DNA of 64,000 bases from an uncultured Coriobacteriia bacterium (GCA_948466335.1 CAOKAE010000002.1:92029-156028); one strand, 5' to 3'; shown: positions 2,865 to 18,769, numbered from the stretch's first letter. Translations and numbers: made by a program. Notes: generated by a model not told the origin, from the letters alone.

Positions 2865-3823
2865 TCGTTTTCCTTGACTACGCTCTCGTAGGTCTTCGTG
2901 CCAGCGTAGATCTCGTCCTTCAGCGGGTTGAGCTTCAGCTTGCGCACGCGGTAGAACTGGTAGACAGCCAGCGCGACATTGGATGCCAGCGCGATGAAGC
3001 TAACCACGAAGAAGGCCGTGGGATTGTGCGTGGTGGGTATGGGCGCCAGCACATCGGCAAACTGGGGAATCGTCATGACGAACATAATCCAGAGAGCCAG
3101 CGTTTGCGCGCGATGCTGCAGCCACGCGCCCCGTTTGATGAAGAAGGTGGGGATGGTGCATGCCAGTAGGAGCGCCAAGCCGCAATAGGCCGAATGATCG
3201 GAAATGCAGTTATACGTGTACGCGAAGTTCCAGAAGTCGTAGGCGATAATCCATGCCCAAATCATATCGGGCCAAATCATGTCCTTCGTCTTGTCCTTCG
3301 AGATGAAGATGCCAAACCAACCGCAGATGGTGATGATGTTCAAGATGCCCGCGATACCGTTCATGATGTTCCATGGGCCCGAGATGGTCCAGAGGTTCTC
3401 GACGATTCCGCCATCCCATAGGCCAAAGCTGAACACCTGGAAGTCGCGGATGGCCGCCTCAGCGATATTGATGGCAAGAATCAGAGGCGGAAAGCACAGC
3501 GCCCATTTCTTCTCGTATAGATAATGGACTCTGCCGTCCTTGCCGTTCCACTTCACGTAGCGCAAGGCCATGAAGCCCACGCACCCTGCAAGCGCTGAGT
3601 ACGTCTTCACCCAGTTGAACCACGTGCCGGTTCCGTATTCGTTTCCAGGAGCCGCCGTTTCGGGCCATACGAAAATCGTAAGCGCGATTGGAACGACGAT
3701 GAAGAGGGCGATGCCGCCCCACGGCTTCACACGTCCGAGCTCGTTGAACGCCATGAGGGCGAAGAGCACGAACAGCCAAATAGCCCAATAGATAGGGTCT
3801 GCCGCCTGATACAAGATTCCCAT
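2861..3823 (-). CDS. Polytopic integral membrane protein, function unknown
   Basis: 320 aa with about 9-10 hydrophobic segments rich in W/F/Y. I recognise no catalytic motif. It is divergent from the TetR gene. Confidence 0.7.
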   Translation of the reverse strand: MGILYQAADPIYWAIWLFVLFALMAFNELGRVKPWGGIALFIVVPIALTIFVWPETAAPGNEYGTGTWFNWVKTYSALAGCVGFMALRYVKWNGKDGRVHYLYEKKWALCFPPLILAINIAEAAIRDFQVFSFGLWDGGIVENLWTISGPWNIMNGIAGILNIITICGWFGIFISKDKTKDMIWPDMIWAWIIAYDFWNFAYTYNCISDHSAYCGLALLLACTIPTFFIKRGAWLQHRAQTLALWIMFVMTIPQFADVLAPIPTTHNPTAFFVVSFIALASNVALAVYQFYRVRKLKLNPLKDEIYAGTKTYESVVKEND

Positions 3824-4823: not shown

Positions 4824-7439
4824 TTACTTGTTCGCTGCCACGATACCGTCCATGAACTCGTCGATGATCTTGTTCACGCGATCGGTGTTGAACTGCCAAC
4901 CGCCATGGGCAGCGCCCTCGATCGAGTAACGCTCGGAAGCCGCGCCCAGTTCCTTGGAGCGCTTGTACAGCTCCATGGTGGAGACGGGCGACACGGACAT
5001 GTCCGCGGTGCCATGGAAGCACAGGAACGCCGGGTCATCCTCGTCCAGGTAGGTGAAGGGGCTGAACTTGGCCGGCTTGTCCAGGTTGCTGTAGACCGAG
5101 CCGCCCGGGTTCTGGCCAAAGGCCGTGCCGTTGATCAGGAGAGCCTCGGTGTTGGACTCCGAATCATGCACGCCATAGTTGGACAGGCCCGCACCGATGA
5201 TGGTGAGGTCGGAAACGCCGAAGAGGTCGATGACGCCCTGGACCGCGGAGCTCTGGTCGAGGTTGTCGCCCACGTCGAACTTGATGTTGTCATCGAACTG
5301 GGTGGTGTTGCCCAGAACGCCCATCATGACCGCCATGTAACCGCCCGCAGAGGAACCGCTCGCGATGATGCAGTTGGGGTCGATGTTGAAGGTGCCCGCA
5401 TGGGCGCGCAGCCACCTCACGCCGGCCTTGGCATCCTGCAGAGGTCCGGGGTTGGTCGTGTTGGGAATGACGCGAATCTCGGCAACCACCACGACATAGC
5501 CACGCTCAGCATAGCGCAGGTACGACATGGCATCCGGATTGGACTTGTTGAAGCCACCGCAGGCAGCGACGTAGAGCACCGGACGCGGACCATCATCCCT
5601 GCCCTTGGAGGGCGTGATGATGTTCATCTTCAGGGTCTTGTTGGTACCCTTCTCGTTAATCGTCTTGTAGGAGATGTCGCGCGTCTGGCTCAGGGTCCAG
5701 TGGTTGGGATCGGTGGCAACCTGCTCGGCTCCGGCCGTGGCCTCAGCGAGCGTGGGCAGGTCCTCGGCCGCATAGGCCTTCGTGCCCTTGCTCAGGTCGA
5801 CGGTGGGCGCAACGTCGGAAACCGGCGTATTCGCGTAGGTGTTCAGGAACTTGAGGGCGCGCTCCATGGAAACGCCCTGCTCGAACTGCTTGCCGCCATG
5901 GCCGGCGCCCTCGATGACGTAGCGCTCGGTGTGTACGCCAGCGGCATCCAGGCGCTTCTGGAGCATCTTGGACGCGACGGGAGACACGAGCGTGTCGGCC
6001 GTGCCGTGGAACATGAGGAACGGCACCGTGTTGCCGTCGATGTAGCTCAGCGGGCTTGCCGCGGAGACCTTGGCGATCATGGAATCATCGAACACGCCGA
6101 CGCCCTTCTGGGCGGCAGCGGCGCCGTTGAGCAGGAGCGCCTCGGTGGTGGCAGCCGACTTGTGGCTGTCCTGAAGCTCCTGGGACAGACCCGCGCCGAT
6201 GATGGTGAGGTCAGAAACGCCGTAGAAGTCGATAACCGCGTTGACGGCAGAGGACTGGTCGAGATTCGCTCCCACGTCGAGCTTGGTCGGAACGACGTCG
6301 CCTTGCATGTTGGGATAGGAGATCTCTTTCACGTTGCTCGTGACACCAATCATGGTCGCGTAATAGCCACCAGAGGAGTTACCGGCAGCGGCGACCTTGT
6401 TCGGGTCAAACTTGTACTTGGTCGCCTCGTTCTTCGCGCCGGCCTTGAGGAAGCGGATGGCCGCCTTGATGTCCTGGAGCGGGGCCGGGAAGTTCGACAC
6501 CGCGCTCGTGCGATGCTGCACGGAGGCAACGACATAACCGCCCTTGGCCAGCGCAAGGCGCGTCTCGAGGTTGCTGGCGGCATCGGAGTTGGTGAATCCG
6601 CCTCCGTTAATCCAGACGACGAGCGGCGTCTCGCCGTTCTTCGCCGTGGACGGCGTCAGCAGCTCGATCTGCAGGTCGACGGGCTTGCCGTAGTCGCTGG
6701 TGTGGAGATACGGGATGGTCTCCTGGCTCACGGTGACGGCGGTCGACTTGTCGGCATCGGTGAGATTGATCACGTTATAGGCAGTCGCCTCGTCGAGTGT
6801 GGCGAGACCCGGCGTGTCCTGACCGATGCACGCCTTGCTCACATCGACCGTACCCGTGTTGAACGGGTCGACCGGCACGGGGACGTCGCTGGCGCCACGT
6901 ACGGCATACCAACCGATGCCCTCGTCGTTCCAACCGATGCTCACGAGCCTGCTATGCTCGTCGAGGCTGGTGGTGTAGTTGTGGGAACCGGCGTTGTTCG
7001 TTGCCGCATTGGGGTCCACGTTGGGGTTGAACTGCCTGTAGAGGGGCACACGCTCCTGGTCGTCGGAATAGAAGCTGATGCCCTCGTCGGTCCAGCCGGC
7101 CTGCACGAGGCTGTCGCGCTCGAACTCGGACATCGTGTAGTGATGGTCCGTGCCCGAATACACGCGATACACGGGCGTCTCGGACGTGGTCGGGGCATGC
7201 CAGCCGATGCCCTCGTAGTTCCAGCCGGCGGCGACGGTGGCATCCTTCTCGACGTCGCTTGCCGTGTAGAAGTGCTCACCGGAATTGGGATTGTACAGAC
7301 GATGCATCGCCTGCGTCTCCTCTGCGGCGTTATCAGCAAACGCCAGTCCCGACGGCACCATGAACACCGCGCACAAAGACGTTGCCATGAAGCAGGCCAA
7401 TGCCTTTCGCGCATACTCAAGTGCTTTAGGTTTACCCAT
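4824..7439 (-). CDS. Secreted protein: signal peptide, 3 YRLYNPNSGEHFYT-type repeats, and two tandem alpha/beta-hydrolase (esterase/lipase) domains
   Basis: Starts MGKPKALEY...GLAFA/DN (Sec-type signal) with SD GGAGA upstream. Three repeats resemble DUF5648-type repeats. Two GxSxG nucleophile motifs are present: GNSSGGYYA (about 6361-6390) and GSSAGGYMA (about 5331-5360). Both halves share NLDQSSAV..VID.(F/Y)GVSDLTIIGAGLS and FHGTAD..VSPV. Confidence 0.85.
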   Translation of the reverse strand: MGKPKALEYARKALACFMATSLCAVFMVPSGLAFADNAAEETQAMHRLYNPNSGEHFYTASDVEKDATVAAGWNYEGIGWHAPTTSETPVYRVYSGTDHHYTMSEFERDSLVQAGWTDEGISFYSDDQERVPLYRQFNPNVDPNAATNNAGSHNYTTSLDEHSRLVSIGWNDEGIGWYAVRGASDVPVPVDPFNTGTVDVSKACIGQDTPGLATLDEATAYNVINLTDADKSTAVTVSQETIPYLHTSDYGKPVDLQIELLTPSTAKNGETPLVVWINGGGFTNSDAASNLETRLALAKGGYVVASVQHRTSAVSNFPAPLQDIKAAIRFLKAGAKNEATKYKFDPNKVAAAGNSSGGYYATMIGVTSNVKEISYPNMQGDVVPTKLDVGANLDQSSAVNAVIDFYGVSDLTIIGAGLSQELQDSHKSAATTEALLLNGAAAAQKGVGVFDDSMIAKVSAASPLSYIDGNTVPFLMFHGTADTLVSPVASKMLQKRLDAAGVHTERYVIEGAGHGGKQFEQGVSMERALKFLNTYANTPVSDVAPTVDLSKGTKAYAAEDLPTLAEATAGAEQVATDPNHWTLSQTRDISYKTINEKGTNKTLKMNIITPSKGRDDGPRPVLYVAACGGFNKSNPDAMSYLRYAERGYVVVVAEIRVIPNTTNPGPLQDAKAGVRWLRAHAGTFNIDPNCIIASGSSAGGYMAVMMGVLGNTTQFDDNIKFDVGDNLDQSSAVQGVIDLFGVSDLTIIGAGLSNYGVHDSESNTEALLINGTAFGQNPGGSVYSNLDKPAKFSPFTYLDEDDPAFLCFHGTADMSVSPVSTMELYKRSKELGAASERYSIEGAAHGGWQFNTDRVNKIIDEFMDGIVAANK

Positions 7440-7645
7440 TAGGTCTCCCTTCCTTGTAACGATTTGCCTTACGCACCGTCTTCTCCCTCCCCCGGGTTTG
7501 ATACGCAGGGCCCGTGCCGCGACGTCGCGAATATGCGCCCAGTCGCATTCGTGGCGCGCGTGGCTTTCATGCACGGTATGAGGTGGACAGATGATTGTCT
7601 CCCCACGAAAGGTGGGTAATGCGGCAAAAGGGCCGGACAGACGGC

Positions 7646-9156
7646 TTATATCAGCTTTTTCGCCTCGTTGACCATGGCGATCAGCTCGTCCTTGCGATGA
7701 ATGCCCATCTTGCGGTAGATGCTCTTGCCGTAGCCCTTGACGGTGCTCTCGGCCACGACCAGTTCCTCGGCCACGCGCTTGACCGTGTAGCCCCGCGCCA
7801 TGAGCGAGGCGGTCTCCTGTTCGCGCTCGGTCAGGTCATATCGTTCGGCCAGCATGTCCATGGCAAGGTCGTGTCGCTCGGCTAGAGAAGGTACCTGTTT
7901 CAAGTCGTCGGGCTTTCTCTCGGCCCCTGTTCCAATTTGCCCAGAAACGCCCGCCGGTGAACGATAACCATGATGAAGAGCACGGCGCACATGCCCAAGG
8001 AGACGGCGATACCCGCGGCGATGCTCACGGGAAACAGAAAGTCAGCGGGAGTCAAATTGAGGTGGGCGAGCACGGCCGGGATAATCGAGGACGTGATGCC
8101 GGACGCAAGACCGTACACCACAAGGAAGAACGCCGAACACGAGAGCGGGGAGTGCCCGTTATCCAGACCCCATAAGCTTATCAACGCCATCGCATAGACG
8201 AGCAGGGCAGAGTACAGGCCCGTCACGAACGGCGAGAGCACGACGGGGGACACGAAGGCGAACAGCACCGTCGAGACCATGAAGCCGACAAGGCCGATAC
8301 TCCCTATGGCCAAGGTACATTCCGCCGTTGACTTTGAGCGTAGGGCAATCAGTAGGAAGAGCACTCCGATTCCGACGGAGACCAGGTAGGCATAGATCGT
8401 CCTGGGATGGGGGACGTAGTTGACCCCGCCATGGGCCCATCTGCTGCGCAGGAAGGCACCGCAGAAGATCTCGGCAAACACCAATGCCATGGCGCATATC
8501 TGCACTTTGCGAAGATAGGAATCCTGAAGGAACGGCTCCAGCTCGCGCGTTGCGGAGATGACCTGATCCTTGCGAAGCAGACAAAGCGCGAGGAGCGCGA
8601 GAAGCGGATAGAGTGCACTGAGCGTCGACGCCCATTCGCGAGGCAGGGCATCGAGCAGCCCGAAGACGTGACTTGCCACGAAGGCACCCATTACCACCGT
8701 CGCGATCTTGTCGCGGGCGATTGCGGCGAGCACGCGAAACCATCCGGTGACAAGAACAGCAAAACCCATGCAAAGGACAACAATGCTCACGACATAGAAG
8801 GCATCGGTCGTCACGCCAAGGGTTCTTCCCGCGCTATTGGCAAGCACGCCTGCCATGGCAAGGATGCCTCCAGCGACGTACGGGACAAGCCGCCCTTCTG
8901 TCTCCAAGACCCTACGGGGTTTTCTGCCGCGGCATAGCGAGATGACCGCCATCACGCACCCGAGGAGGATGAGGGCGGCATCGTATACGACGCGCAACTC
9001 GGAAAAGCTCGACGTGATCCCGACGGTGAGAGACCCGAAAAACGGCGCCCGGAACATGGCGCAAAGCGCCCCCAGGCCCACAAGGCACAGAATCGCTTTC
9101 TTGTTTCCCCCCGACACGCCGACGACCCCCTCCTGGCCGGTCGTGCATAAAGACAA
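7646..9156 (-). pseudogene. LuxR-family regulator (N-terminal ~10-TM domain plus C-terminal GerE/LuxR HTH) split by a frameshift
   Basis: The 418-aa polytopic ORF (7900..9156) and the 114-aa ORF carrying the HTH LTEREQETASLMARGYTVKRVAEELVVAESTVKGYGKSIYRKMG (7646..7990) overlap by 91 nt in different frames. Adding one nucleotide would fuse them into a protein of about 495 aa. The likely true start is GTG 9117, which has GGAGGGGG upstream. Confidence 0.6.
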
Positions 9157-9195: not shown

Positions 9196-9271
9196 TGGTG
9201 GAGATGAAGGGATTCGAACCCTCGGCCCCCACGTTGCGAACGTGATGCTCTCCCAGCTGAGCTACATCCCC
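9196..9271 (-). tRNA. tRNA-Ala (anticodon CGC)
   Basis: 76 nt, GGGGATGTAGCTCAGCTGGGAGAGCATCACGTTCGCAACGTGGGGGCCGAGGGTTCGAATCCCTTCATCTCCACCA. The acceptor stem has the G3:U70 alanine identity pair. The anticodon loop is TTCGCAA and the T-loop is TTCGAAT. CCA is encoded. Confidence 0.95.
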
Positions 9272-11369: not shown

Positions 11370-11807
11370 TCATTTATGGTAGGGCTCGCCGCGCATGATC
11401 TTGAAGGCGCGGTATATCTGCTCAAGCAAGACGACGCGGGCAAGATTGTGCGGCAACGTAATCTTGCCGAATGAGAGCGTCTCGTCGGCACGGTCGTAGA
11501 CCGCCTGCGTCACGCCATCCGAGCCGCCAATGCAAAACGCGATGTCGCTCGTGCCGTGGGTCATGAGCTCGTCGAGACGCTGCGCGATCCCCTCGCTCGA
11601 TCGCTGCTCTCCCTTGATGGCGAGCAAGATAAGATGCGCGTCTCCGGCCACGCGGATGATCTCATCGCTCTCGAAATCGATGCCCTTGTCGGGAATTTCC
11701 ACGATACGCAGCTTGGTATAACCGCCAAGACGCTTGGCGTACTCCGCCGCCGCATCCTTCCAGAAGCGTTCCTTGAGCTTGCCCACGGCTATGACCGTTA
11801 TTCCCAT
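11370..11807 (-). CDS. rlmH: 23S rRNA (pseudouridine1915-N3)-methyltransferase
   Basis: 145 aa, SPOUT family. Begins MGITVIAVGKLKERFWKDAAAEYAKRL and ends LPHNLARVVLLEQIYRAFKIMRGEPYHK. Confidence 0.92.
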   Translation of the reverse strand: MGITVIAVGKLKERFWKDAAAEYAKRLGGYTKLRIVEIPDKGIDFESDEIIRVAGDAHLILLAIKGEQRSSEGIAQRLDELMTHGTSDIAFCIGGSDGVTQAVYDRADETLSFGKITLPHNLARVVLLEQIYRAFKIMRGEPYHK

Positions 11808-11885
11808 CTGTGCTCCTACTCTCGCCTAGTTCAATACAGTATAATCATGGGCTGTTACACATTTCGACATCACAGAGGATGCATC

Positions 11886-12662
11886 ATGGCAAACCAGCAC
11901 TATACCCTGACTTCATACGAACCCGTCTACGTCATCGCGGAGGAAATCAAGATTCCCGAGGAAGCCGTGCGCAAGACGGCGCTGCGCTGGCTCGAGCTCA
12001 ATGTTTGCAAGGAGGGCGAGACGCCCAAGCTCAACGACCAGTGGGTTGCCAAGCACGTTGAAGACATCAACAACGTCGAGGAACTCCTCATCTTCATCCG
12101 TTACAACATGTACAAGGACAACGTCGAGGTACAGCAGCTCGCCGACCAAAACGTCATCTGCCGCGAGCTCGCCACGCGTCTTGTCGAGGACCTGCCGCAG
12201 GACCTCGTCGAGGAAGCCCTGTACGCATCGTCCTATCGCCTCGAAGAAATGCTGCGCATGAACGGCCTGCAGAAGAAGGACTACTGCGAGCAGCGCGGCA
12301 TCTCCGAAGAGCAGCTTGACGCCGAGGTGCGCGAGAACACCATCGAAAGCCTCAAGGAGGACTCGGCACTCGCCGCCTGGGCAGACCACGCCGGCTACAC
12401 GCTGGAGGCGGAGGACTTCTACGAGATCATTCCGGGCGATTCCGTCCAGGACAAGGCCTACAAGCGTCGCCAGATCGAGCTCGAGGGCAGGATGCCCCAG
12501 ATGGAGGAGTACGCGCTCAAGGCAAAGGCCCTGCGCGACGTCATGGAAAACGCCATGATCAAGCGTACCGAAAAGGACGAGGAGTGGATGCGCTACGGCG
12601 ACACCAGCAAGGACGTCCTCGACGCCAACAAGCAGTTCCCCGACAACTTCATCTCGCTGTAA
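11886..12662 (+). CDS. Acidic hypothetical protein resembling a stand-alone trigger-factor C-terminal domain
   Basis: Starts at ATG 11886 (MANQHYTL); the ORF-track start at 11556 overlaps rlmH. The segment LRMNGLQKKDYCEQRGISEEQLDAEVRENTIESLKEDSALAAWADHAGYTLEAEDF follows the pattern of trigger-factor C-domains. This assignment is by eye only. Confidence 0.6.
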   Translation: MANQHYTLTSYEPVYVIAEEIKIPEEAVRKTALRWLELNVCKEGETPKLNDQWVAKHVEDINNVEELLIFIRYNMYKDNVEVQQLADQNVICRELATRLVEDLPQDLVEEALYASSYRLEEMLRMNGLQKKDYCEQRGISEEQLDAEVRENTIESLKEDSALAAWADHAGYTLEAEDFYEIIPGDSVQDKAYKRRQIELEGRMPQMEEYALKAKALRDVMENAMIKRTEKDEEWMRYGDTSKDVLDANKQFPDNFISL

Positions 12663-12735: not shown

Positions 12736-14037
12736 TTACTCGACAACCGTGATGTCCGCCGTCTTGGCAAGCCAGCGCGCGGCCATAGACTGGCGGCACA
12801 TCTTGCGCAGGTCCGCCATGCGGTGCGCTTCGGTGAGCTCGGCGATCTGGGCCTCGGCGTCCTCGACACCGGAGAGCTCGCGGGCGATGTCCTCGTCCGT
12901 GACCTCCCAGCCCTTCTCCTTGAAGAGAGCCTCGAGCGCCATGTCGCGCTTGGCGCGGTCGATGGACTCCTGATTGACCTCTTCTTGCATTCTCTCGGCC
13001 TCGACGTTGTTCTTGAGCATCCAGTCCTGCAGGCCCGTGCCCTCCTTCTGGAGGCGCTGCATGAGTTCGCGGCTCACGTTGTCGCGCATGAACTCGACGT
13101 AATACTCCGGGACCTCGCCCTCGAAACGCTCGATGAGCGCATCGACGACCTTCTGCTCGAGCAGCTTGGGAAGCTCCCGGTCCTTCTGCATGTTGATGGT
13201 CATCTTCATCTGGTCATGCAGGTCATCGAGACTCGTGGCGCCAATCTTGGCAAGGAACTCCTCGTCGAGTTCCGGCAAGACGCGCTTGCGAATCTCCATG
13301 ATCTCGACGTTGGCATGAAGCTTGCCATCGCCGAGCTCCGGACGGTCTTCCTGGCCCTGCGCATCAAAGTCGAAGTCGAGCGTGTAGCCCTTCTTGGTGC
13401 CGATGATGTGCTCGTCGAAGCTCTCGGGCATGGAACCGCCGCCGATGCTGAGCATGCGCTCCACGTCATTGAGGCCCGGGATGACGGAGCCGTCATTCAT
13501 GATGGTCATCCTGACGGTGACGAAATCCCCGTCTTCGACCTCGTAGTCCGGGTCATCGATGGTGTCGTAGTTATAGTAGACGCTCAGCAGCTCCTCGATC
13601 TGCGTCTCGATCTCTGCCTCGGTTGCCTCGTTGGGAGGCATCTCGATCGAGACCTCGTCGTAGCTCGAGAGCGTACCCTCGGGAGGCACCGGGCCCGACA
13701 CGGTAAACGTGAACGGCTGGTCCTTGGCGGGAATCTTCTCGAGGTTGAATTGCGGGTCACCGATGAACAGGACATCGGCATCGTCGAGCAGAGCCGGTGC
13801 CTCGCCGTTCACGATGGCCTCGGCGATGCGGGCAAACACGAGATCGTGTCCACCTGCCTCGCGCTCGATGACCTCGCGCGGGGCCTTGCCCTTGCGAAAG
13901 CCCGGAATCTCGTTCTTGGCGAGTTCTTTGAATTGCTCCTCGATATAGGCGTTGACCTCGTCCGCGCTTGCGGTCATGGTCACGACCATTTCCTGCACGG
14001 CGTCATCGGACTCGCGTGTGATGTCTGTGATTTCCAA
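12736..14037 (-). CDS. tig: Trigger factor
   Basis: 433 aa. N-terminal ribosome-binding signature IPGFRKGKAPREVIE, a central PPIase-like region, and a C-terminal arm domain. Confidence 0.92.
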   Translation of the reverse strand: MEITDITRESDDAVQEMVVTMTASADEVNAYIEEQFKELAKNEIPGFRKGKAPREVIEREAGGHDLVFARIAEAIVNGEAPALLDDADVLFIGDPQFNLEKIPAKDQPFTFTVSGPVPPEGTLSSYDEVSIEMPPNEATEAEIETQIEELLSVYYNYDTIDDPDYEVEDGDFVTVRMTIMNDGSVIPGLNDVERMLSIGGGSMPESFDEHIIGTKKGYTLDFDFDAQGQEDRPELGDGKLHANVEIMEIRKRVLPELDEEFLAKIGATSLDDLHDQMKMTINMQKDRELPKLLEQKVVDALIERFEGEVPEYYVEFMRDNVSRELMQRLQKEGTGLQDWMLKNNVEAERMQEEVNQESIDRAKRDMALEALFKEKGWEVTDEDIARELSGVEDAEAQIAELTEAHRMADLRKMCRQSMAARWLAKTADITVVE

Positions 14038-14071: not shown

Positions 14072-14407
14072 CTAGTCGCGGTAGTTGCCCGCGGGATCGA
14101 CCTTCCTGCGCAGGGAAAGCTCGTCGGAGTGGAGAATGACGTAGCGCATGCCCTTGAGCGTGACGATGAGGTTCACGACCTCGTGCGAGCCGGCGCCGCC
14201 ATGGTTGTACAGCTGATACGTGAGAACCTCACGGTCGATCATGGGCTGATAGATGGGAGAGCCATCCACCTTCTCGCGCAGCAGAATGGTTGGCTGTCGG
14301 CCGAGCTCTTCCTGGCGCAGCGCGATGTTGTACAGGATGTCCTCCTGCTCCTCGGTCAGACGACCCATTTCCTCGATCTCAGCGATGATCTCTGCTTCAG
14401 TTGACAT
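14072..14407 (-). CDS. Hypothetical protein (111 aa)
   Basis: Starts at ATG 14407 (MSTEAEII) with SD AGGAGG 5 nt upstream, and TATACT upstream of that. No motif recognised. Confidence 0.6.
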   Translation of the reverse strand: MSTEAEIIAEIEEMGRLTEEQEDILYNIALRQEELGRQPTILLREKVDGSPIYQPMIDREVLTYQLYNHGGAGSHEVVNLIVTLKGMRYVILHSDELSLRRKVDPAGNYRD

Positions 14408-14470
14408 GTATGTCCTCCTAGAATTGGCGCAATGTCCGTAGTATAGCGTGACAGCGCCCATGAATACTGA

Positions 14471-14502
14471 AAGGGCCCGATACCGTTACATATCGGGCCC
14501 TT
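14471..14502 (-). terminator. Perfect 12-bp hairpin after the 91-aa gene (terminator-like, weak U tract)
   Basis: AAGGGCCCGATA-N8-TATCGGGCCCTT, 20 nt downstream of the stop at 14522. Confidence 0.5.
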
Positions 14503-14521
14503 ACAGGTTTGTGGCGAAATG

Positions 14522-14797
14522 TTAGATGCCAGCGTAGCCCTTGGAAGGATCGCTGCCACCGACGCCTTCGATGCTGTCGCCAGCCTCGTTGCCGGTGCGC
14601 TTCGTGGAGGTGTAGCCACCCCAAGCGCGGGCGATGAACTTGTCCTTAACCCAGAAGATCTGAGCCTTCATGAGATCAGCCTGCGTCACGCCCTCTTCGG
14701 CCATGGCCTCGTCCTTGCTCTTGCCGTCGGCAACGAGCTTGTTGAGGATCTCAGCGGCCTCGGGAGCATCGAGAGCCAAAAACTCTTCAGGTGTCAT
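14522..14797 (-). CDS. Hypothetical protein (91 aa)
   Basis: SD AGGAGG 8 nt upstream of ATG 14797. Acidic and helical at the N-terminus, Gly/Ser-rich tail. No motif recognised. Confidence 0.6.
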   Translation of the reverse strand: MTPEEFLALDAPEAAEILNKLVADGKSKDEAMAEEGVTQADLMKAQIFWVKDKFIARAWGGYTSTKRTGNEAGDSIEGVGGSDPSKGYAGI

Positions 14798-14827
14798 ATG
14801 GGTTTCCTCCTAATCGTCTGCATGGTA

Positions 14828-14855
14828 GGCCTGACCGACCGTGGCCGGTCAGGCC
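14828..14855 (-). terminator. Perfect 10-bp GC-rich hairpin after the 119-aa gene (no U tract)
   Basis: GGCCTGACCG-N8-CGGTCAGGCC, between the stop at 14880 and the next SD. Confidence 0.4.
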
Positions 14856-14879
14856 CATTCTAGCTTATCCAGGCTCTAC

Positions 14880-15239
14880 TTAGAGCTGGAACAGACACAT
14901 CGGGCGGTCAAACTCCTTCATCTTGGCAATCATCTCATCGAGAGTGCCGTAATACATGGAGTGCGACTCCTCGACCTGGACTGCCAGGGGACGCTGGCCG
15001 GCCTTGTCGCCGCCGGTGCCCCAATGCTGGGAGAAGATGCAGGTCGGGATGGGGAGATAGATCCACTCCCAATCGTCGCCGTCATTGCCCTCGCCGACCT
15101 TGAAGGGGCCGACTTCGACTTCCTTGATCGCAAACTGATCGAGGGGAAGTCCGAGCTCTTCCTTGCAGGCGATCTCTGCGGCATGGTTGCCAGAGAAGAA
15201 GGTGTAGTCAACCAGCAGTGCGTACTTCTGATCTGCCAT
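14880..15239 (-). CDS. Hypothetical protein (119 aa), immediately downstream of the molybdoenzyme
   Basis: Only a 20-nt gap after the oxidoreductase stop, which suggests co-transcription. No motif recognised. Confidence 0.65.
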   Translation of the reverse strand: MADQKYALLVDYTFFSGNHAAEIACKEELGLPLDQFAIKEVEVGPFKVGEGNDGDDWEWIYLPIPTCIFSQHWGTGGDKAGQRPLAVQVEESHSMYYGTLDEMIAKMKEFDRPMCLFQL

Positions 15240-15259
15240 TTAAGTAACTTCCTTTCTTA

Positions 15260-17644
15260 TTAGTCCTGGTTCAGGCCGCGGACACGCCTCATGTTGCACA
15301 TGACGCCCTTGTAGGGAGCACCGAAGCCGAGCTTACCGATGTTCATGTGCGGAACGAGGCTGTTGAAGTTGGACTTCCAGACGCCGAACAGGTTGGGCTC
15401 CTCGCCGTCCTGCTCGGGGAACCACCAGCCATGAGCGCAGTTGATGATACCGGGCTTCATGCAGAAGGTGATCTCAGCCTTGAAGCGAGCAGAACCGAAC
15501 ATGTTGTAGACCTCGACCCAGTCGCCCTTGGTGATGCCGTACTCGGCAGCAGTCTCGGGGTTGATCTGGACCCACGGCCACGGATCGATCTGGCGCAGGG
15601 ACGGAACCTGACGATGCTCCGAATGGAAGGAGCTGTAACGACGCGAACCGGAGGTGGTGATCAGCGGATACTGACCAGCGAACTCGGGCTTGCTGAACTG
15701 CGAGTAGTTGGGCTCCTCGTAGTACGGCAGCGGATCCTCGCCCCAGGACTCGTACAGAATCGAGTAGGCCTCGATCTGACCGGTGATGGTGTTGAAGCCA
15801 GGCTCGCCGTCGAAGCGGAGCATGCCCTTCGCGTACTTCTCGTACTCGAAGCCATGAGCGCCCGGCTGGTAGATGCCCTCCTCGCGGAACTGGTCGAAGG
15901 TCATGCCGAGCTCCTTCAGCTGATCGCTGTAGAACTGGACGACTGCCTTCTCCAGAGCGTCGCGGTCGAGCAGGCCACGATCCTTGCCGAGCAGCATGGG
16001 AGCGTACTCGCTGTGCTCGAGCGTGGAGACGTCGAGCGTGTCGCCGGCCGGCTTGTACCACGGCCACCACGTCGGGTTGAGGCGCTGACCGAAGACGAGG
16101 CAGATCTCGACGTCGGACATGCACTCGCCAACCTGCAGGGCCTTGTTCATCGGGCCCATGAAGACGGTGTTGCGGCCATAGTGCGTGAGGCAGATACCAT
16201 CATGCTCAGCCCAGGTGGACATCGGCAGGAAGTAATCGCCCACGGCCATGGCGGTCGGGGTCAGGAAGAGGTCCTGGATGACGCAGAACTCGATGCTCTC
16301 GCACAGAGCGTCATGCCAACGCTTGGGCTGAGCCGAGCAGGTGGGCGCCAGGAAGTTGGAGCTGTTGAACCAAGCCATGCGGAGCTGGTACGGCTTGTGC
16401 GACTCCATGGTGTTCAGGGTCTCGTCCGGCTGGGTGGTAGCCATACCAGTGGACAGGCCAGGCCACTCAGCAGCACCGATACGAAGCGACCAGACCTCGT
16501 CGGTCATAGCGCCACGCTGCTCCATACGCCACTTGCCGAGGAGAGCGGACGGGGGACCGAGGGTCAGACCACCCGGGGTATCGATGGAACCGGTCATGGC
16601 GGCGAGGAGAATCATCGCCTGGGACAGCTGAACGCCGTTCTTGTTCTGGTCGAATGCCAGACCCCAAGCCCAACCGATGGGACGCTCGGTGCCGAGGATG
16701 TGAGCAACGCGCTCAATCGTGGCAACGTCGACCGTCGTGATCTCGGCGACCTTCTCGACGGGATACTCGGCGGCGCGAGCCTTGAGCTCGTCGAGGCCGT
16801 AGATCCACTGCTCCACGAACTCATGATCATACTCGTCGTTCTGGAACATGAGGTTCATGATGCCGAGAGCCATGCAGGTGTCCGTCTGCGGACGGAGCTG
16901 AACGTTGATGTTTCCATTGCGCGAACCCGGCCAGGTGATGCGGGGGTCAATGGAAATCAGGTGCGTGCCAAGCTTCATCATGTCAACGAGAACATGACCG
17001 AAGAAACCGTCACCATTGGAGGGCAGCGGCTCCTTACCCCAAACGACAACCCACTTGGAGAGCTTGTACGCGGGATCCTCGAAACGACCAGGCAGGTGAC
17101 CTGCGTAGTCGAGCTCGGGATAGCCAGCGCCGAGGACGTAGTCAGCAATCGAGCAACGCGGGCCATAGCAGGACCAGCCAGATTGCGTGTAGCAGCAGTT
17201 CGGGGACTGCAGCACGGAGAACGTCAGGGCATAGTAGAAGATGCAAGCCTCACGGCCGGTGCCACCGAAGCAGACGATGGACTCGGGGCCGTACGTGGTC
17301 TGATAGTAACGAACCTTCTCGCAGATCGTGTCGAGAGCCTCGTCCCACGTGGTGCGCTCCCACTTCATCTTGCCGCGGTCCTCGTAGGCACGCTTCATGG
17401 GATAGATGACGCGGTCGGGGCTGTAGGTGTACTCACGAAGAGCAAGGTTCATGGCGTTGACGCGACCCTGCGTAATGGGGTTGTCGTCGTCACCCTCGAT
17501 GCGGATGAGGCGACCACCGTCGGTGATAACCTTAACGCCATATCCAACGGGATGGGATCCCGGGGGAGACCAGGTGTTGCTGCGGGTAGCTACTGTGCCA
17601 TCCTCGCGTGTAACTCGCCACTCTTTGCTGTAAGTTCCAGCCAT
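15260..17644 (-). CDS. Molybdopterin (bis-MGD) oxidoreductase, DMSO-reductase superfamily, acetylene-hydratase-like; no Tat signal, no N-terminal Fe-S motif
   Basis: 794 aa from ATG 17644 (MAGTYSKEW), with SD AAAGGAG 7 nt upstream. Family-typical segments: RVIYPMKR, WERTTWDEALD, ISIDPR, and the C-terminal EDPLPYYEEP...YPLITTSGSR...INPETAAEYGITKGDWV. The first 85 residues contain no Cys and no RR motif. A candidate Cys ligand is present in GWSCYGPRC. Confidence 0.85.
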   Translation of the reverse strand: MAGTYSKEWRVTREDGTVATRSNTWSPPGSHPVGYGVKVITDGGRLIRIEGDDDNPITQGRVNAMNLALREYTYSPDRVIYPMKRAYEDRGKMKWERTTWDEALDTICEKVRYYQTTYGPESIVCFGGTGREACIFYYALTFSVLQSPNCCYTQSGWSCYGPRCSIADYVLGAGYPELDYAGHLPGRFEDPAYKLSKWVVVWGKEPLPSNGDGFFGHVLVDMMKLGTHLISIDPRITWPGSRNGNINVQLRPQTDTCMALGIMNLMFQNDEYDHEFVEQWIYGLDELKARAAEYPVEKVAEITTVDVATIERVAHILGTERPIGWAWGLAFDQNKNGVQLSQAMILLAAMTGSIDTPGGLTLGPPSALLGKWRMEQRGAMTDEVWSLRIGAAEWPGLSTGMATTQPDETLNTMESHKPYQLRMAWFNSSNFLAPTCSAQPKRWHDALCESIEFCVIQDLFLTPTAMAVGDYFLPMSTWAEHDGICLTHYGRNTVFMGPMNKALQVGECMSDVEICLVFGQRLNPTWWPWYKPAGDTLDVSTLEHSEYAPMLLGKDRGLLDRDALEKAVVQFYSDQLKELGMTFDQFREEGIYQPGAHGFEYEKYAKGMLRFDGEPGFNTITGQIEAYSILYESWGEDPLPYYEEPNYSQFSKPEFAGQYPLITTSGSRRYSSFHSEHRQVPSLRQIDPWPWVQINPETAAEYGITKGDWVEVYNMFGSARFKAEITFCMKPGIINCAHGWWFPEQDGEEPNLFGVWKSNFNSLVPHMNIGKLGFGAPYKGVMCNMRRVRGLNQD

Positions 17645-18112
17645 AGTGTTACTCCTTTTCCTCAATTACCTTTTGGGAAAACTTGAAGCCCTCTTATGTA
17701 CCTAAAGCCAGATTTAAACTCTCGATACATATATGTGATGTGATTTGCGAAGAATCCCACTTCACATTCACTCCGCATAACCAACAACGACAAGGCAACT
17801 ACTTGTCACCAAGAACACGGAGAGCCTAAAAGGCTCAAGCGAACCTTGGGTTGGATTTCAGAGGGTAATGCCTCTAGTCAACCCTCCCTTCACGAATGTG
17901 ATTGGGTAATGTGCGTTAGGGCGCTTTTGTTCTCGATGGTGTCTGGGGCATCGGAAACGCGGGTGACCTAACGTCCCAAAATAATACCAGCAATCGTATA
18001 AAAAGCCTGAACGATTCCAGAGAATCTGTATCCTATTTAGAGAATAATAATGACTATGGTACGAGGCCATACCAAAAGCATGATTTTTGCACGGTACCAG
18101 CGGTTTTTCCCG

Positions 18113-18769
18113 TTATTTCAGACCGGGACGTGTAGGACACAGGTCGACGCAGGGACACTCCTCGCAGCGTGGTCTTCGTGCGATGCAATACTCCCTGCCG
18201 AAGCGTATCCACTGGCTGTTGACGTCCTCCCAGAGCTCCCTTGGCAGAAGCGCGAGAAGGTCCTTCTCGACCTCGCCGGGCGTCTTCTTGTTCGAGAACT
18301 TGAGCTGATGCGCGATGCGGAACACGTGCGTGTCGACGGCAATCCCCTCGACCTCGCCGAAGCATTCGTTCATGACGATGTTGGCGGTCTTGCGACCCAC
18401 GCCGGGAAGCTTTTGCAAATCGTCCATGCTCTGCGGGACCTCGCCATCGAAATCCGCCATGATCATGCGAGCGCAGTTGACACAGTTGCGTGCCTTGTTG
18501 TGGTGAAACCCGATGGTCCAGATGACCTTCTCGAGCTCGTCGACGTCGGCCTGCGCCATCGCCGCCGGCGTCGGCCAGCGCTCGAAGAGCTCGGGCGTGA
18601 CCTTGTTGACGTTGGCATCGGTCGTCTGGGCCGAGAGCGCGACCGCAATCACGCACTGGAAGGGGTTGACGAAGTTGAGCGCCGGCGTGGGCTGGGGATA
18701 CAGCTCGTCCATGCGCGCGCAGAACTCGATGGCGCGTTCGCGCTTCCTTGCCTTGGACTCACGTGGCAT
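18113..18769 (-). CDS. nth: Endonuclease III
   Basis: HhH motif LQKLPGVGRKTANIV and a C-terminal 4Fe-4S cluster loop, CIARRPRCEECPCVDLC. Confidence 0.93.
   Translation of the reverse strand: MPRESKARKRERAIEFCARMDELYPQPTPALNFVNPFQCVIAVALSAQTTDANVNKVTPELFERWPTPAAMAQADVDELEKVIWTIGFHHNKARNCVNCARMIMADFDGEVPQSMDDLQKLPGVGRKTANIVMNECFGEVEGIAVDTHVFRIAHQLKFSNKKTPGEVEKDLLALLPRELWEDVNSQWIRFGREYCIARRPRCEECPCVDLCPTRPGLK

Follow-up and report, generated by a model that had tools for sequence, protein, structure and literature searches.

Introduction

The closest described relative of the locus reported here is the hydrocaffeic acid dehydroxylase of Gordonibacter pamelaeae, known as "Unk-9" before it was renamed Gp Hcdh, which consists of HcdhA (C1877_07565, 770 residues) and HcdhB (C1877_07560, 119 residues) (Bae et al. 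2024, PMC11585353). The enzyme was purified natively by activity tracking, contains 1 molybdenum (Mo) per protein as determined by ICP-MS, and in assays with methyl viologen and dithionite turns hydrocaffeic acid into 3-(3-hydroxyphenyl)propionate, with a kcat of 28 per min and a Km of 0.24 mM (PMC11585353). Hydrocaffeic acid raises its expression more than 250-fold, deletion of hcdh in G. urolithinfaciens abolishes the activity together with hydrocaffeic-acid-dependent ATP production, and in the metatranscriptomes of two human gut cohorts Gp Hcdh shows the highest transcription of any catechol dehydroxylase (PMC11585353). The carriers of Unk-9 are G. pamelaeae, Paraeggerthella, Ellagibacter and Raoultibacter massiliensis, and para-dehydroxylation of hydrocaffeic acid has been demonstrated only for G. 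pamelaeae and G. urolithinfaciens (PMC11585353). Here we analyze a stretch of 64,000 nucleotides from an uncultured Coriobacteriia bacterium, referred to below as the window, which is near-identical to the human-gut metagenome-assembled genome (MAG) MGYG-HGUT-02074. Four genes in this window most likely form an hcdhAB-type cassette for a cytoplasmic, Gordonibacter-type catechol dehydroxylase carrying Mo on bis(molybdopterin guanine dinucleotide) (bis-MGD), an enzyme that would be devoid of iron-sulfur (Fe-S) clusters and would receive its electrons directly. The enzyme, its substrate and its B subunit are already known, and the window protein is an ortholog of this characterized enzyme; new here are the proposals that HcdhB is a relic ferredoxin and that a two-electron reductase has, to judge from its ligand positions, lost its electron wire in full.

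In the mechanism published for this family, a catechol oxygen is transferred to Mo(IV) and the resulting Mo(VI)=O is then re-reduced by two electrons. The generic model for Gordonibacter-type enzymes in the literature holds that the B subunit binds Fe-S clusters and shuttles electrons, and one review remarks, in a general way, that the Gordonibacter proteins lack the Fe-S motif of Eggerthella-type catalytic subunits. The paper on Gp Hcdh calls the B protein an "accessory subunit", and the available part of its text never mentions iron (PMC11585353). No statement that HcdhB is cluster-less was found in the literature that could be searched.

The window encodes an ortholog of Gp Hcdh

The catalytic (alpha) subunit of the window has 794 residues and is 81% identical to the 770-residue G. 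pamelaeae ortholog by tblastn, or 84% in a global alignment, and it is 81-86% identical to the confirmed Unk-9/Hcdh members. The group that described Gp Hcdh applied a cut-off of >80% identity, since lower homology may mean other substrates (PMC11585353), and the window protein falls within the group whose catalytic subunits are at least 80% identical to that of Gp Hcdh. The small protein encoded next to it (beta, 119 residues) shares 86-87% identity with the copies in Gordonibacter. These sequences are tied to the active protein by peptides that the purified enzyme yielded. The HcdhA peptide SNTWSPPGSHPVGYGVK, found by proteomics (PMC11585353), coincides with the Cys-less motif that a preliminary description of this DNA had flagged; HcdhB co-purifies with HcdhA, the two forming an A-B heterodimer, and its peptides YALLVDYTYFSGNHAAEIACK, AGQRPLAVQVEESASMYYGTLEEMQAK and MAEFDRPMVLFQL (PMC11585353) belong to the G. 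pamelaeae ortholog of the 119-residue protein. The two loci (~84% identity in A, ~86% in B) have in common the A-B pair, the Cys-less motifs, the lack of a signal for twin-arginine translocation (Tat) and the same two small downstream genes with their hairpins. Unlike the Hcdh of E. lenta, which has 1193 residues, the window alpha subunit fits the small Gordonibacter type that carries no Tat signal.

The preliminary description had supposed an enzyme of unknown substrate, possibly non-redox, and had made this reading depend on there being no well-characterized ortholog. Homology and literature searches led to Gp Hcdh, which acts on hydrocaffeic acid and has been purified, kinetically characterized and genetically validated; it is reductive, and its peptides hold the same Cys-less motifs. 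Because identity exceeds 80%, synteny is retained and the purified active ortholog yielded peptides with the Cys-less motifs, we treat the substrate and the reductase status as known. By analogy with the ortholog, the substrate of the window enzyme is most likely hydrocaffeic acid, a metabolite from coffee and vegetables, from which the para-hydroxyl would be removed.

The alpha subunit has lost the FS0 site

Pfam searches of the alpha subunit gave PF00384 (Molybdopterin, 66.3 bits) and PF01568 (Molydop_binding, 66.1 bits), both above their cut-offs, whereas the Fe4S4 domain remained below threshold (14.1 bits against a cut-off of 22.7). The best solved relative in a PDB search is acetylene hydratase (2e7z, E 2e-70). 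These matches place the protein in the dimethyl sulfoxide (DMSO) reductase, or bis-MGD, superfamily, on the acetylene-hydratase/catechol-dehydroxylase branch, and bear out the overall layout that had been proposed for it. No RR/Tat motif was found in the first 60-80 residues, so that the twin-arginine leader is missing, as had been noted, and the subunit can be described as a cytoplasmic molybdoenzyme with predicted bis-MGD binding. The first Cys is residue 108; the reported absence of Cys from the first 85 residues is correct, and the strings TRSNTWSPPGSHPVGYG and GRVNAMNL are both present.

Cys159, in the sequence GWSCYGPRC, is aligned to the Cys of the acetylene hydratase stretch AMYMCIGN, which we take to be the tungsten ligand Cys141. 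The residue is invariant in 99 relatives and is likely the Mo ligand, a prediction that agrees with the role suggested for it before. Acetylene hydratase from P. acetylenicus (2e7z) is thus the closest solved structure, is likewise cytoplasmic and has an equivalent Cys metal ligand; it differs from the window protein in that the latter has no FS0 site, has an N-terminal domain that cannot be aligned (the first 74 residues gave no alignment with acetylene hydratase) and has a conserved beta partner. Acetylene hydratase itself is a monomeric, non-redox tungsten enzyme that keeps FS0, with the catalytic Asp13 adjacent to it. Four Cys residues of the window protein (134, 151, 159 and 164; approximately 17153-17245; GREAC...NCC...GWSCYGPRC) occupy a 31-residue stretch that includes the predicted Mo ligand. 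They are invariant in the cluster-less clade and in FS0-bearing relatives alike, and the two others that fall in the aligned stretch, Cys151 and Cys164, have no Cys counterpart in acetylene hydratase.

To count residues at the FS0 site, we defined the Hcdh clade as alpha subunits of at least 66% identity. The four FS0 positions read N, Y, N and N in 53 of 53 members of this clade, as against Cys at all four in 46 relatives. A fifth position in the region is Ser in the clade, Asp in the 46 relatives, and Cys in Dodh and some paralogs, so that Hcdh-clade proteins read N/S/Y/N/N across the ex-cysteine positions, the residues being N23, S30, Y35, N63 and N66. The Arg within the C-V-R-C motif of the relatives, which stands where this family has its FS0-pterin coupling Lys/Arg, is Met or Leu in the clade. 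No new invariant set of four Cys was found in the Hcdh-clade alpha subunits.

The wider group to which the enzyme belongs, comprising Dodh, Cldh, Eadh1/2, Gs Vadh and relatives in Firmicutes (D. hafniense, Sporomusa), likewise has a cytoplasmic alpha subunit of ~750-800 residues, a beta subunit of ~110-125 residues, a third gene for ~70-90 residues and, often, major facilitator superfamily (MFS) transporters nearby. The alpha subunits of Dodh, D. hafniense and Sporomusa retain the four FS0 Cys at non-canonical spacing, whereas those of the Hcdh clade retain none. One sequence (P0060, locus L087) looked like the closest FS0-bearing relative, at 69% identity, and was discarded as an assembly chimera: from residue 251 to the end it is 100% Gp HcdhA, its N-terminus derives from a paralog and its hcdhB has a frameshift, so that this metagenomic contig is most likely an assembly artefact.

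The beta subunit is a putative relic ferredoxin

The origin of the 119-residue protein became apparent from relatives in Firmicutes (Desulfitobacterium hafniense, Sporomusa, Peptococcaceae), in which alpha subunits of ~54% identity contain the Pfam Fe4S4 domain and the gene after alpha encodes a protein of 111 residues with 8-9 cysteines. BLASTP aligned the 119-residue protein with the 8-Cys, 111-residue protein downstream of the D. hafniense alpha relative at 9e-26. The Sporomusa equivalent matches Fer4_11 at 27.3 bits (cut-off 26.2), and it matches FdhB (2e-9), ArrB, PsrB and others in two separate stretches, its N-terminus resembling the first Cys group (I) and its C-terminal half the last (IV) of the beta subunits of complex iron-sulfur molybdoenzymes (CISM). 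The beta protein of this subfamily can be described as a mini-beta from which the middle Cys groups II and III have been deleted, with two [4Fe-4S] clusters predicted in the Cys-bearing forms. HcdhB appears to descend from the same fold as the four-cluster CISM beta subunits (FdhB, PsrB, ArrB, DmsB, NarH); it differs from them by the deletion of groups II and III, which is shared by its subfamily, and by the further loss of 7 of the 8 remaining Cys.

In 62 of 62 Hcdh-clade beta subunits the eight Cys positions are occupied by F/Y, N, A, C, F, G/A, A and E/D. The survivor is the fourth, Cys25, and the other seven are invariantly replaced. The beta subunits checked from Firmicutes and MAG relatives have 8-10 Cys, in contrast to the one of the Hcdh clade. 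The protein is under purifying selection, with 63-92% identity and 47 invariant columns, a degree of conservation close to that of alpha. These features identify HcdhB, as far as its sequence can tell, as a cluster-less relic of a di-cluster mini-ferredoxin of the CISM beta type. The preliminary description had seen no electron-transfer subunit gene next to alpha; in terms of descent this does not stand, because the 119-residue protein is homologous to a 2x[4Fe-4S] electron-transfer subunit, and in terms of ligands it does, as 7 of the 8 Cys are lost.

Two side clades, P0066 (L084) and P0109 (L085), have lost the FS0 Cys (the positions read C,H,D,T and C,W,N,G) and have a beta subunit that retains 9-10 Cys. 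According to textbook geometry, beta clusters should be too far from the pterin when FS0 is missing. These clades therefore represent an unexplained intermediate state. In L086, an FS0-bearing relative from Coriobacteriales, a gene for a 62-residue 2x[4Fe-4S] ferredoxin lies at 3604-3792, just upstream of alpha. The loci of the Firmicutes relatives (L081/L082, L083) have a sigma-54 PAS-domain activator and MFS transporters nearby, and D. hafniense has a second paralogous alpha gene a few kb from the first; this arrangement suggests that small aromatic compounds are inducibly catabolized outside the gut Coriobacteriia as well.

How electrons might reach the molybdenum center

If Cys159 holds the metal as predicted, Mo(IV) would take up the catechol oxygen and Mo(VI)=O would need two electrons to return. 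The ancestral wire for these electrons would have run from two [4Fe-4S] clusters in the mini-ferredoxin beta subunit to FS0 in alpha and, by way of the coupling Arg, to the pterin. In the Hcdh clade the ligands of all three ancestral clusters appear to be gone, and the coupling Arg with them. The generic model of an Fe-S B subunit does not describe this clade: 1 of the 8 ligand Cys is kept in all 62 members, the type enzyme included. Since neither subunit has cluster ligands and the reaction uses two electrons, that working model, to judge from the sequences, cannot hold for Hcdh. HcdhB would now serve as a purely structural subunit, because it is retained, is conserved to about the degree of alpha and co-purifies, yet has no cluster ligands.

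Our preferred hypothesis for how Hcdh operates is that the Mo/pterin center is re-reduced by direct contact with a diffusible or protein reductant. We base this proposal on the precedent of DorA, TorA and BisC, which lack FS0, and on the use of methyl viologen in the published assay. These type III enzymes are cluster-free bis-MGD reductases that, by the likeness we draw, are reduced directly at Mo/pterin by a partner, and BisC is cytoplasmic; they differ from the window alpha subunit in their distant sequence relation (E ~1e-26) and in belonging to another clade. They have a Ser ligand and no beta subunit. The term "unusually coupled", used in the preliminary description, remains a fair one, given that no Fe-S relay ligands are found in either subunit.

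Alternatively, the loss of all three clusters and of the coupling Arg might mean that the enzyme is non-redox, being a hydratase, an isomerase or a transhydroxylase-like enzyme that needs no external electrons, which would explain why the clusters were lost. Its closest solved structure is indeed a non-redox enzyme, acetylene hydratase, and among Mo enzymes pyrogallol transhydroxylase offers a precedent for catalysis without net electron transfer. However, the purified ortholog with the same Cys-less motifs carries out a net two-electron reductive dehydroxylation, requires reduced methyl viologen in vitro and supports hydrocaffeic-acid-dependent ATP production. Pyrogallol transhydroxylase is moreover undetectable as a relative: pyrogallol-phloroglucinol transhydroxylase is not among the 51 PDB sequences that match alpha at E <= 1e-3. 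We consider a non-redox function extremely improbable.

With direct electron entry to a cluster-less reductase as the preferred reading, the physiological donor, and the way in which a soluble cytoplasmic reductase conserves energy, become a sharp and directly testable question. The family also offers a series for comparison, namely FS0 with a Cys-rich beta subunit, no FS0 with a Cys-rich beta subunit, and no FS0 with a Cys-less beta subunit. The residual interest attaches to the enzyme family, with its prominence in the gut and its link to energy conservation, and not to this window.

Organization and distribution of the cassette

The genes and other elements of the locus are as follows, in window coordinates.

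18113-18769, minus strand: endonuclease III gene nth, the upstream flank of the cassette.
17645..18112, minus strand: AT-richer leader/promoter region of 468 nucleotides between nth and hcdhA, with no LuxR or MFS gene, unlike most orthologous loci.
15260..17644, minus strand: hcdhA-like catalytic subunit (alpha), 794 residues; ATG start with AAGGAG ahead; PF00384 and PF01568.
14880..15239, minus strand: hcdhB-like accessory subunit (beta), 119 residues; start 20 nucleotides past the alpha stop.
14826..14857, minus strand: stem-loop between hcdhB and the 91-residue protein gene; 14-bp perfect stem, no U-tract.
14522..14797, minus strand: gene for a 91-residue acidic protein, with its own AGGAGG ribosome-binding site.
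14471..14502, minus strand: stem-loop 3' of the 91-residue protein gene; 13-bp stem, then UUUCAGUAUUC.
14072..14404, minus strand: gene for a 111-residue acidic protein, pI 4.8; homologs begin at Met19 of a longer frame.
12736-14037, minus strand: trigger factor gene tig, the downstream flank of the cassette.

The open reading frames (ORFs) for 119, 91 and 111 residues that had been called downstream of alpha, the first of them 20 nucleotides away, were all confirmed. The alpha ORF has an alternative TTG start at 17665, and the frame of the 111-residue protein extends to 14461, its Met19 being the start of the homologs. Spacers of 82 nucleotides separate hcdhB from the 91-residue ORF, and of 117 nucleotides this ORF from the next.

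A scan of species-representative genomes matched alpha in 126 loci, of which 80 were kept for comparison. They are mostly labelled Eggerthellaceae or Coriobacteriia and include Gordonibacter pamelaeae, G. faecis, Paraeggerthella, Raoultibacter, Ellagibacter, Adlercreutzia and Slackia. The four-gene order is the same in essentially all 80 Coriobacteriia loci in which the contig is long enough, far beyond chance, and the synteny covers the loci of G. pamelaeae, Raoultibacter massiliensis, Paraeggerthella and Ellagibacter; the small genes are thus conserved companions of the enzyme, as had been surmised. The flanks are another matter. A gene for nth directly upstream is found only in the species group of the window (L001-L007, L076), in which tig lies downstream where contigs reach, and the idea that the cassette occupies a conserved housekeeping locus (nth/tig) was rejected for this reason. 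In G. pamelaeae an MFS gene lies directly upstream of the cassette and a radical SAM gene downstream. Since the flanks differ between loci while the cassette stays the same, the four genes move as a unit. HcdhA is 93-96% identical across the genera Gordonibacter, Raoultibacter, Paraeggerthella, Adlercreutzia and Slackia (L053, L052, L055, L031, L045, L070), which suggests a recent horizontal spread of the cassette.

In other loci, a divergent LuxR-type regulator and/or an MFS transporter adjoin the cassette in 33-34 cases (33 and 34 by tblastn). The window copy differs from Gp Hcdh in this respect, as it does in its residence in an uncultured Coriobacteriia bacterium between nth and tig: tblastn detected no homolog of either the LuxR-type regulator or the MFS transporter in the whole 64 kb, and this copy must therefore differ in regulation and substrate supply. 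Rfam searched over 12-20 kb gave no riboswitch, including no Mo cofactor (Moco) riboswitch; the sole match was a chance viral hit.

The absence of both homologs is one of several points that weigh against our assignment. The window alpha subunit is the most divergent branch of the group with at least 80% identity (83-86%, compared with 88-96% among the others) and is ~24 residues longer than the 770-residue ortholog, and the substrate specificity of this family can shift near this identity distance. The activity, the metal and the transcription of the window enzyme are carried over from its ortholog by analogy, and its activity is accordingly a predicted one; the absence of Fe-S clusters from Hcdh is deduced from the replaced ligands; direct electron entry is arrived at by exclusion; and the roles given below to the 91- and 111-residue proteins are predicted.

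Some of these points would fit a diverged dehydroxylase for a catechol or phenolic acid other than hydrocaffeic acid, e.g., a catechol with a valeric- or acetic-acid chain. The protein stands outside the tight 88-96% group of strains confirmed to dehydroxylate hydrocaffeic acid, its length is 794 rather than 770 residues, and the regulator missing from the window is the one that senses hydrocaffeic acid. The authors' >80% cut-off itself reflects a concern that lower homology may mean other substrates, and their tree puts Gs Vadh near Gp Hcdh. Nevertheless, identity remains above the authors' 80% limit, all four genes of the cassette are syntenic and orthologous, and the Cys-less signatures of alpha and beta are identical. 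We regard a different substrate as unlikely and retain hydrocaffeic acid as the probable one.

The intergenic hairpins

The strong hairpins that had been noticed between the small genes are borne out by folding. The first (14826-14857) has an intergenic minimum free energy (MFE) of -32.7 kcal/mol (z -3.2), and the second (14471-14502) an MFE of -44 kcal/mol (z -4.8). Stems of 9 bp or more follow hcdhB in 95% of 59 loci and the 91-residue protein gene in 96% of 55 loci. In the hairpin after hcdhB, compensatory double changes occur at 12 of 12 consensus pairs, while the primary sequence is free to vary. A scan with sigma-70 promoter and terminator consensus models was uninformative and missed both hairpins, because they have no U-tracts. 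Actinobacteria often use terminators without a U-tract. Terminator-like hairpins at these positions would probably lower expression of the genes for the 91- and 111-residue proteins relative to hcdhAB, which would fit factors needed in smaller amounts better than stoichiometric subunits.

The 91- and 111-residue proteins

The gene for the 91-residue protein follows hcdhB in 76 of 80 loci, and it also follows the alpha-beta pair in 5 of 6 loci of relatives (L081-L086), in both phyla. Homologs of 71-87 residues with the tail motif RGY-T---SGNE follow alpha-beta in D. hafniense and three more relatives, Cys-bearing or FS0-less. The family is small and unannotated, with 41 representatives among 1.84 billion proteins. 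The gene for the 111-residue protein has a narrower range: it is kept in ~70 of 80 loci and goes with the Hcdh clade as far down as 67% alpha identity, is absent from all six relatives' loci (L081-L086) and was found only beside the cluster-less Hcdh clade. In L086 the fourth-gene position (7456-7761) is taken not by the 111-residue protein but by one of 101 residues, in which the N-terminal part carries 5 Cys and the tail is rich in proline.

Pfam and NCBIfam gave nothing above noise for the three small proteins, and PDB profile searches with their Hcdh-clade alignments gave nothing meaningful. A profile match of the 91-residue protein to a PDB entry named "CAP REPEAT" (5e-07) was set aside, as it has no scoring stretch and looks compositional. 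AlphaFold2 models of the 91- and 111-residue proteins were built on database homologs, with shallow alignments. The model of the former has a predicted local distance difference test (pLDDT) score of 70, with a tail below 50; its N-terminal domain (1-56), made up of four short helices and a beta-hairpin, is winged-helix-like in the model, and the most conserved segment of the protein, ARAWGGYTSTKRTGNE, sits in the tail, which is predicted to be disordered. Foldseek with this model found nothing below E 0.88. The 111-residue protein gave a confident model of a compact alpha/beta fold (pLDDT 89.9), for which the best Foldseek matches were weak ones to PadR-like, RTP and MarR-like structures (E ~0.1, probability 0.8-0.9, TM 0.40-0.46). 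A comparison by hhalign with LmrR, whose sequence was entered by hand, was negative, with a probability of 0.15%. A PadR-like identity of the 111-residue protein accordingly stays at the level of a weak fold resemblance.

Could the two genes be functionally separate from the enzyme, as small regulators or hitch-hikers behind terminators? A strong hairpin stands ahead of each, both modelled folds are winged-helix-like, and the proteomics table for the active fraction obtained by purification contains neither protein (PMC11585353), an omission that their small size could explain. Against this, order and orientation are kept in ~70-76 of 80 loci despite completely different flanks, the 91-residue family follows alpha-beta in Firmicutes too, the 111-residue protein gene accompanies the Hcdh clade down to the alpha identity given above, and both proteins are acidic (pI 4.5-4.8), which is unusual for DNA binders. 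We consider a separate function doubtful. As partners of Hcdh, the two unstudied proteins become candidates with different scopes: the 91-residue protein would most likely serve the whole alpha-beta subfamily, either in maturation at substoichiometric amounts or as a loosely bound factor, and for the 111-residue protein a clade-specific regulator or an adaptor are the candidate roles.

A bolder version of the adaptor role would make Gp Hcdh-type enzymes the first two-subunit Mo-bisMGD reductases with the whole Fe-S relay replaced, the 111-residue protein, with or without the tail of the 91-residue protein, docking a soluble reductant or redox partner at the ex-FS0 face or at the pterin. We think this quite unlikely. 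If it is true, gut catechol respiration by Hcdh uses a coupling mechanism undescribed in the DMSO reductase family.

Other genes in the window

At 4824-7574 (minus strand), ~7 kb from the dehydroxylase, the window encodes a 916-residue protein with two BD-FAE (feruloyl/acetyl-xylan esterase-like) alpha/beta-hydrolase domains and DUF5648. An esterase of the BD-FAE type could act on dietary esters to free hydroxycinnamates, precursors of hydrocaffeic acid. An ORF at 11556-12662 (plus strand), whose only match is Trigger_C (E 3.7e-05), converges on the adjacent tig; it may be a second, truncated trigger-factor-like paralog, and its listed GTG start is probably too far upstream. A hydrophobic ORF of 418 residues at 7900-9156 (minus strand), with no Pfam match, appears on inspection of its sequence to encode a polytopic membrane protein, and a tRNA-Ala(CGC) gene at 9196-9271 (minus strand) adjoins it.

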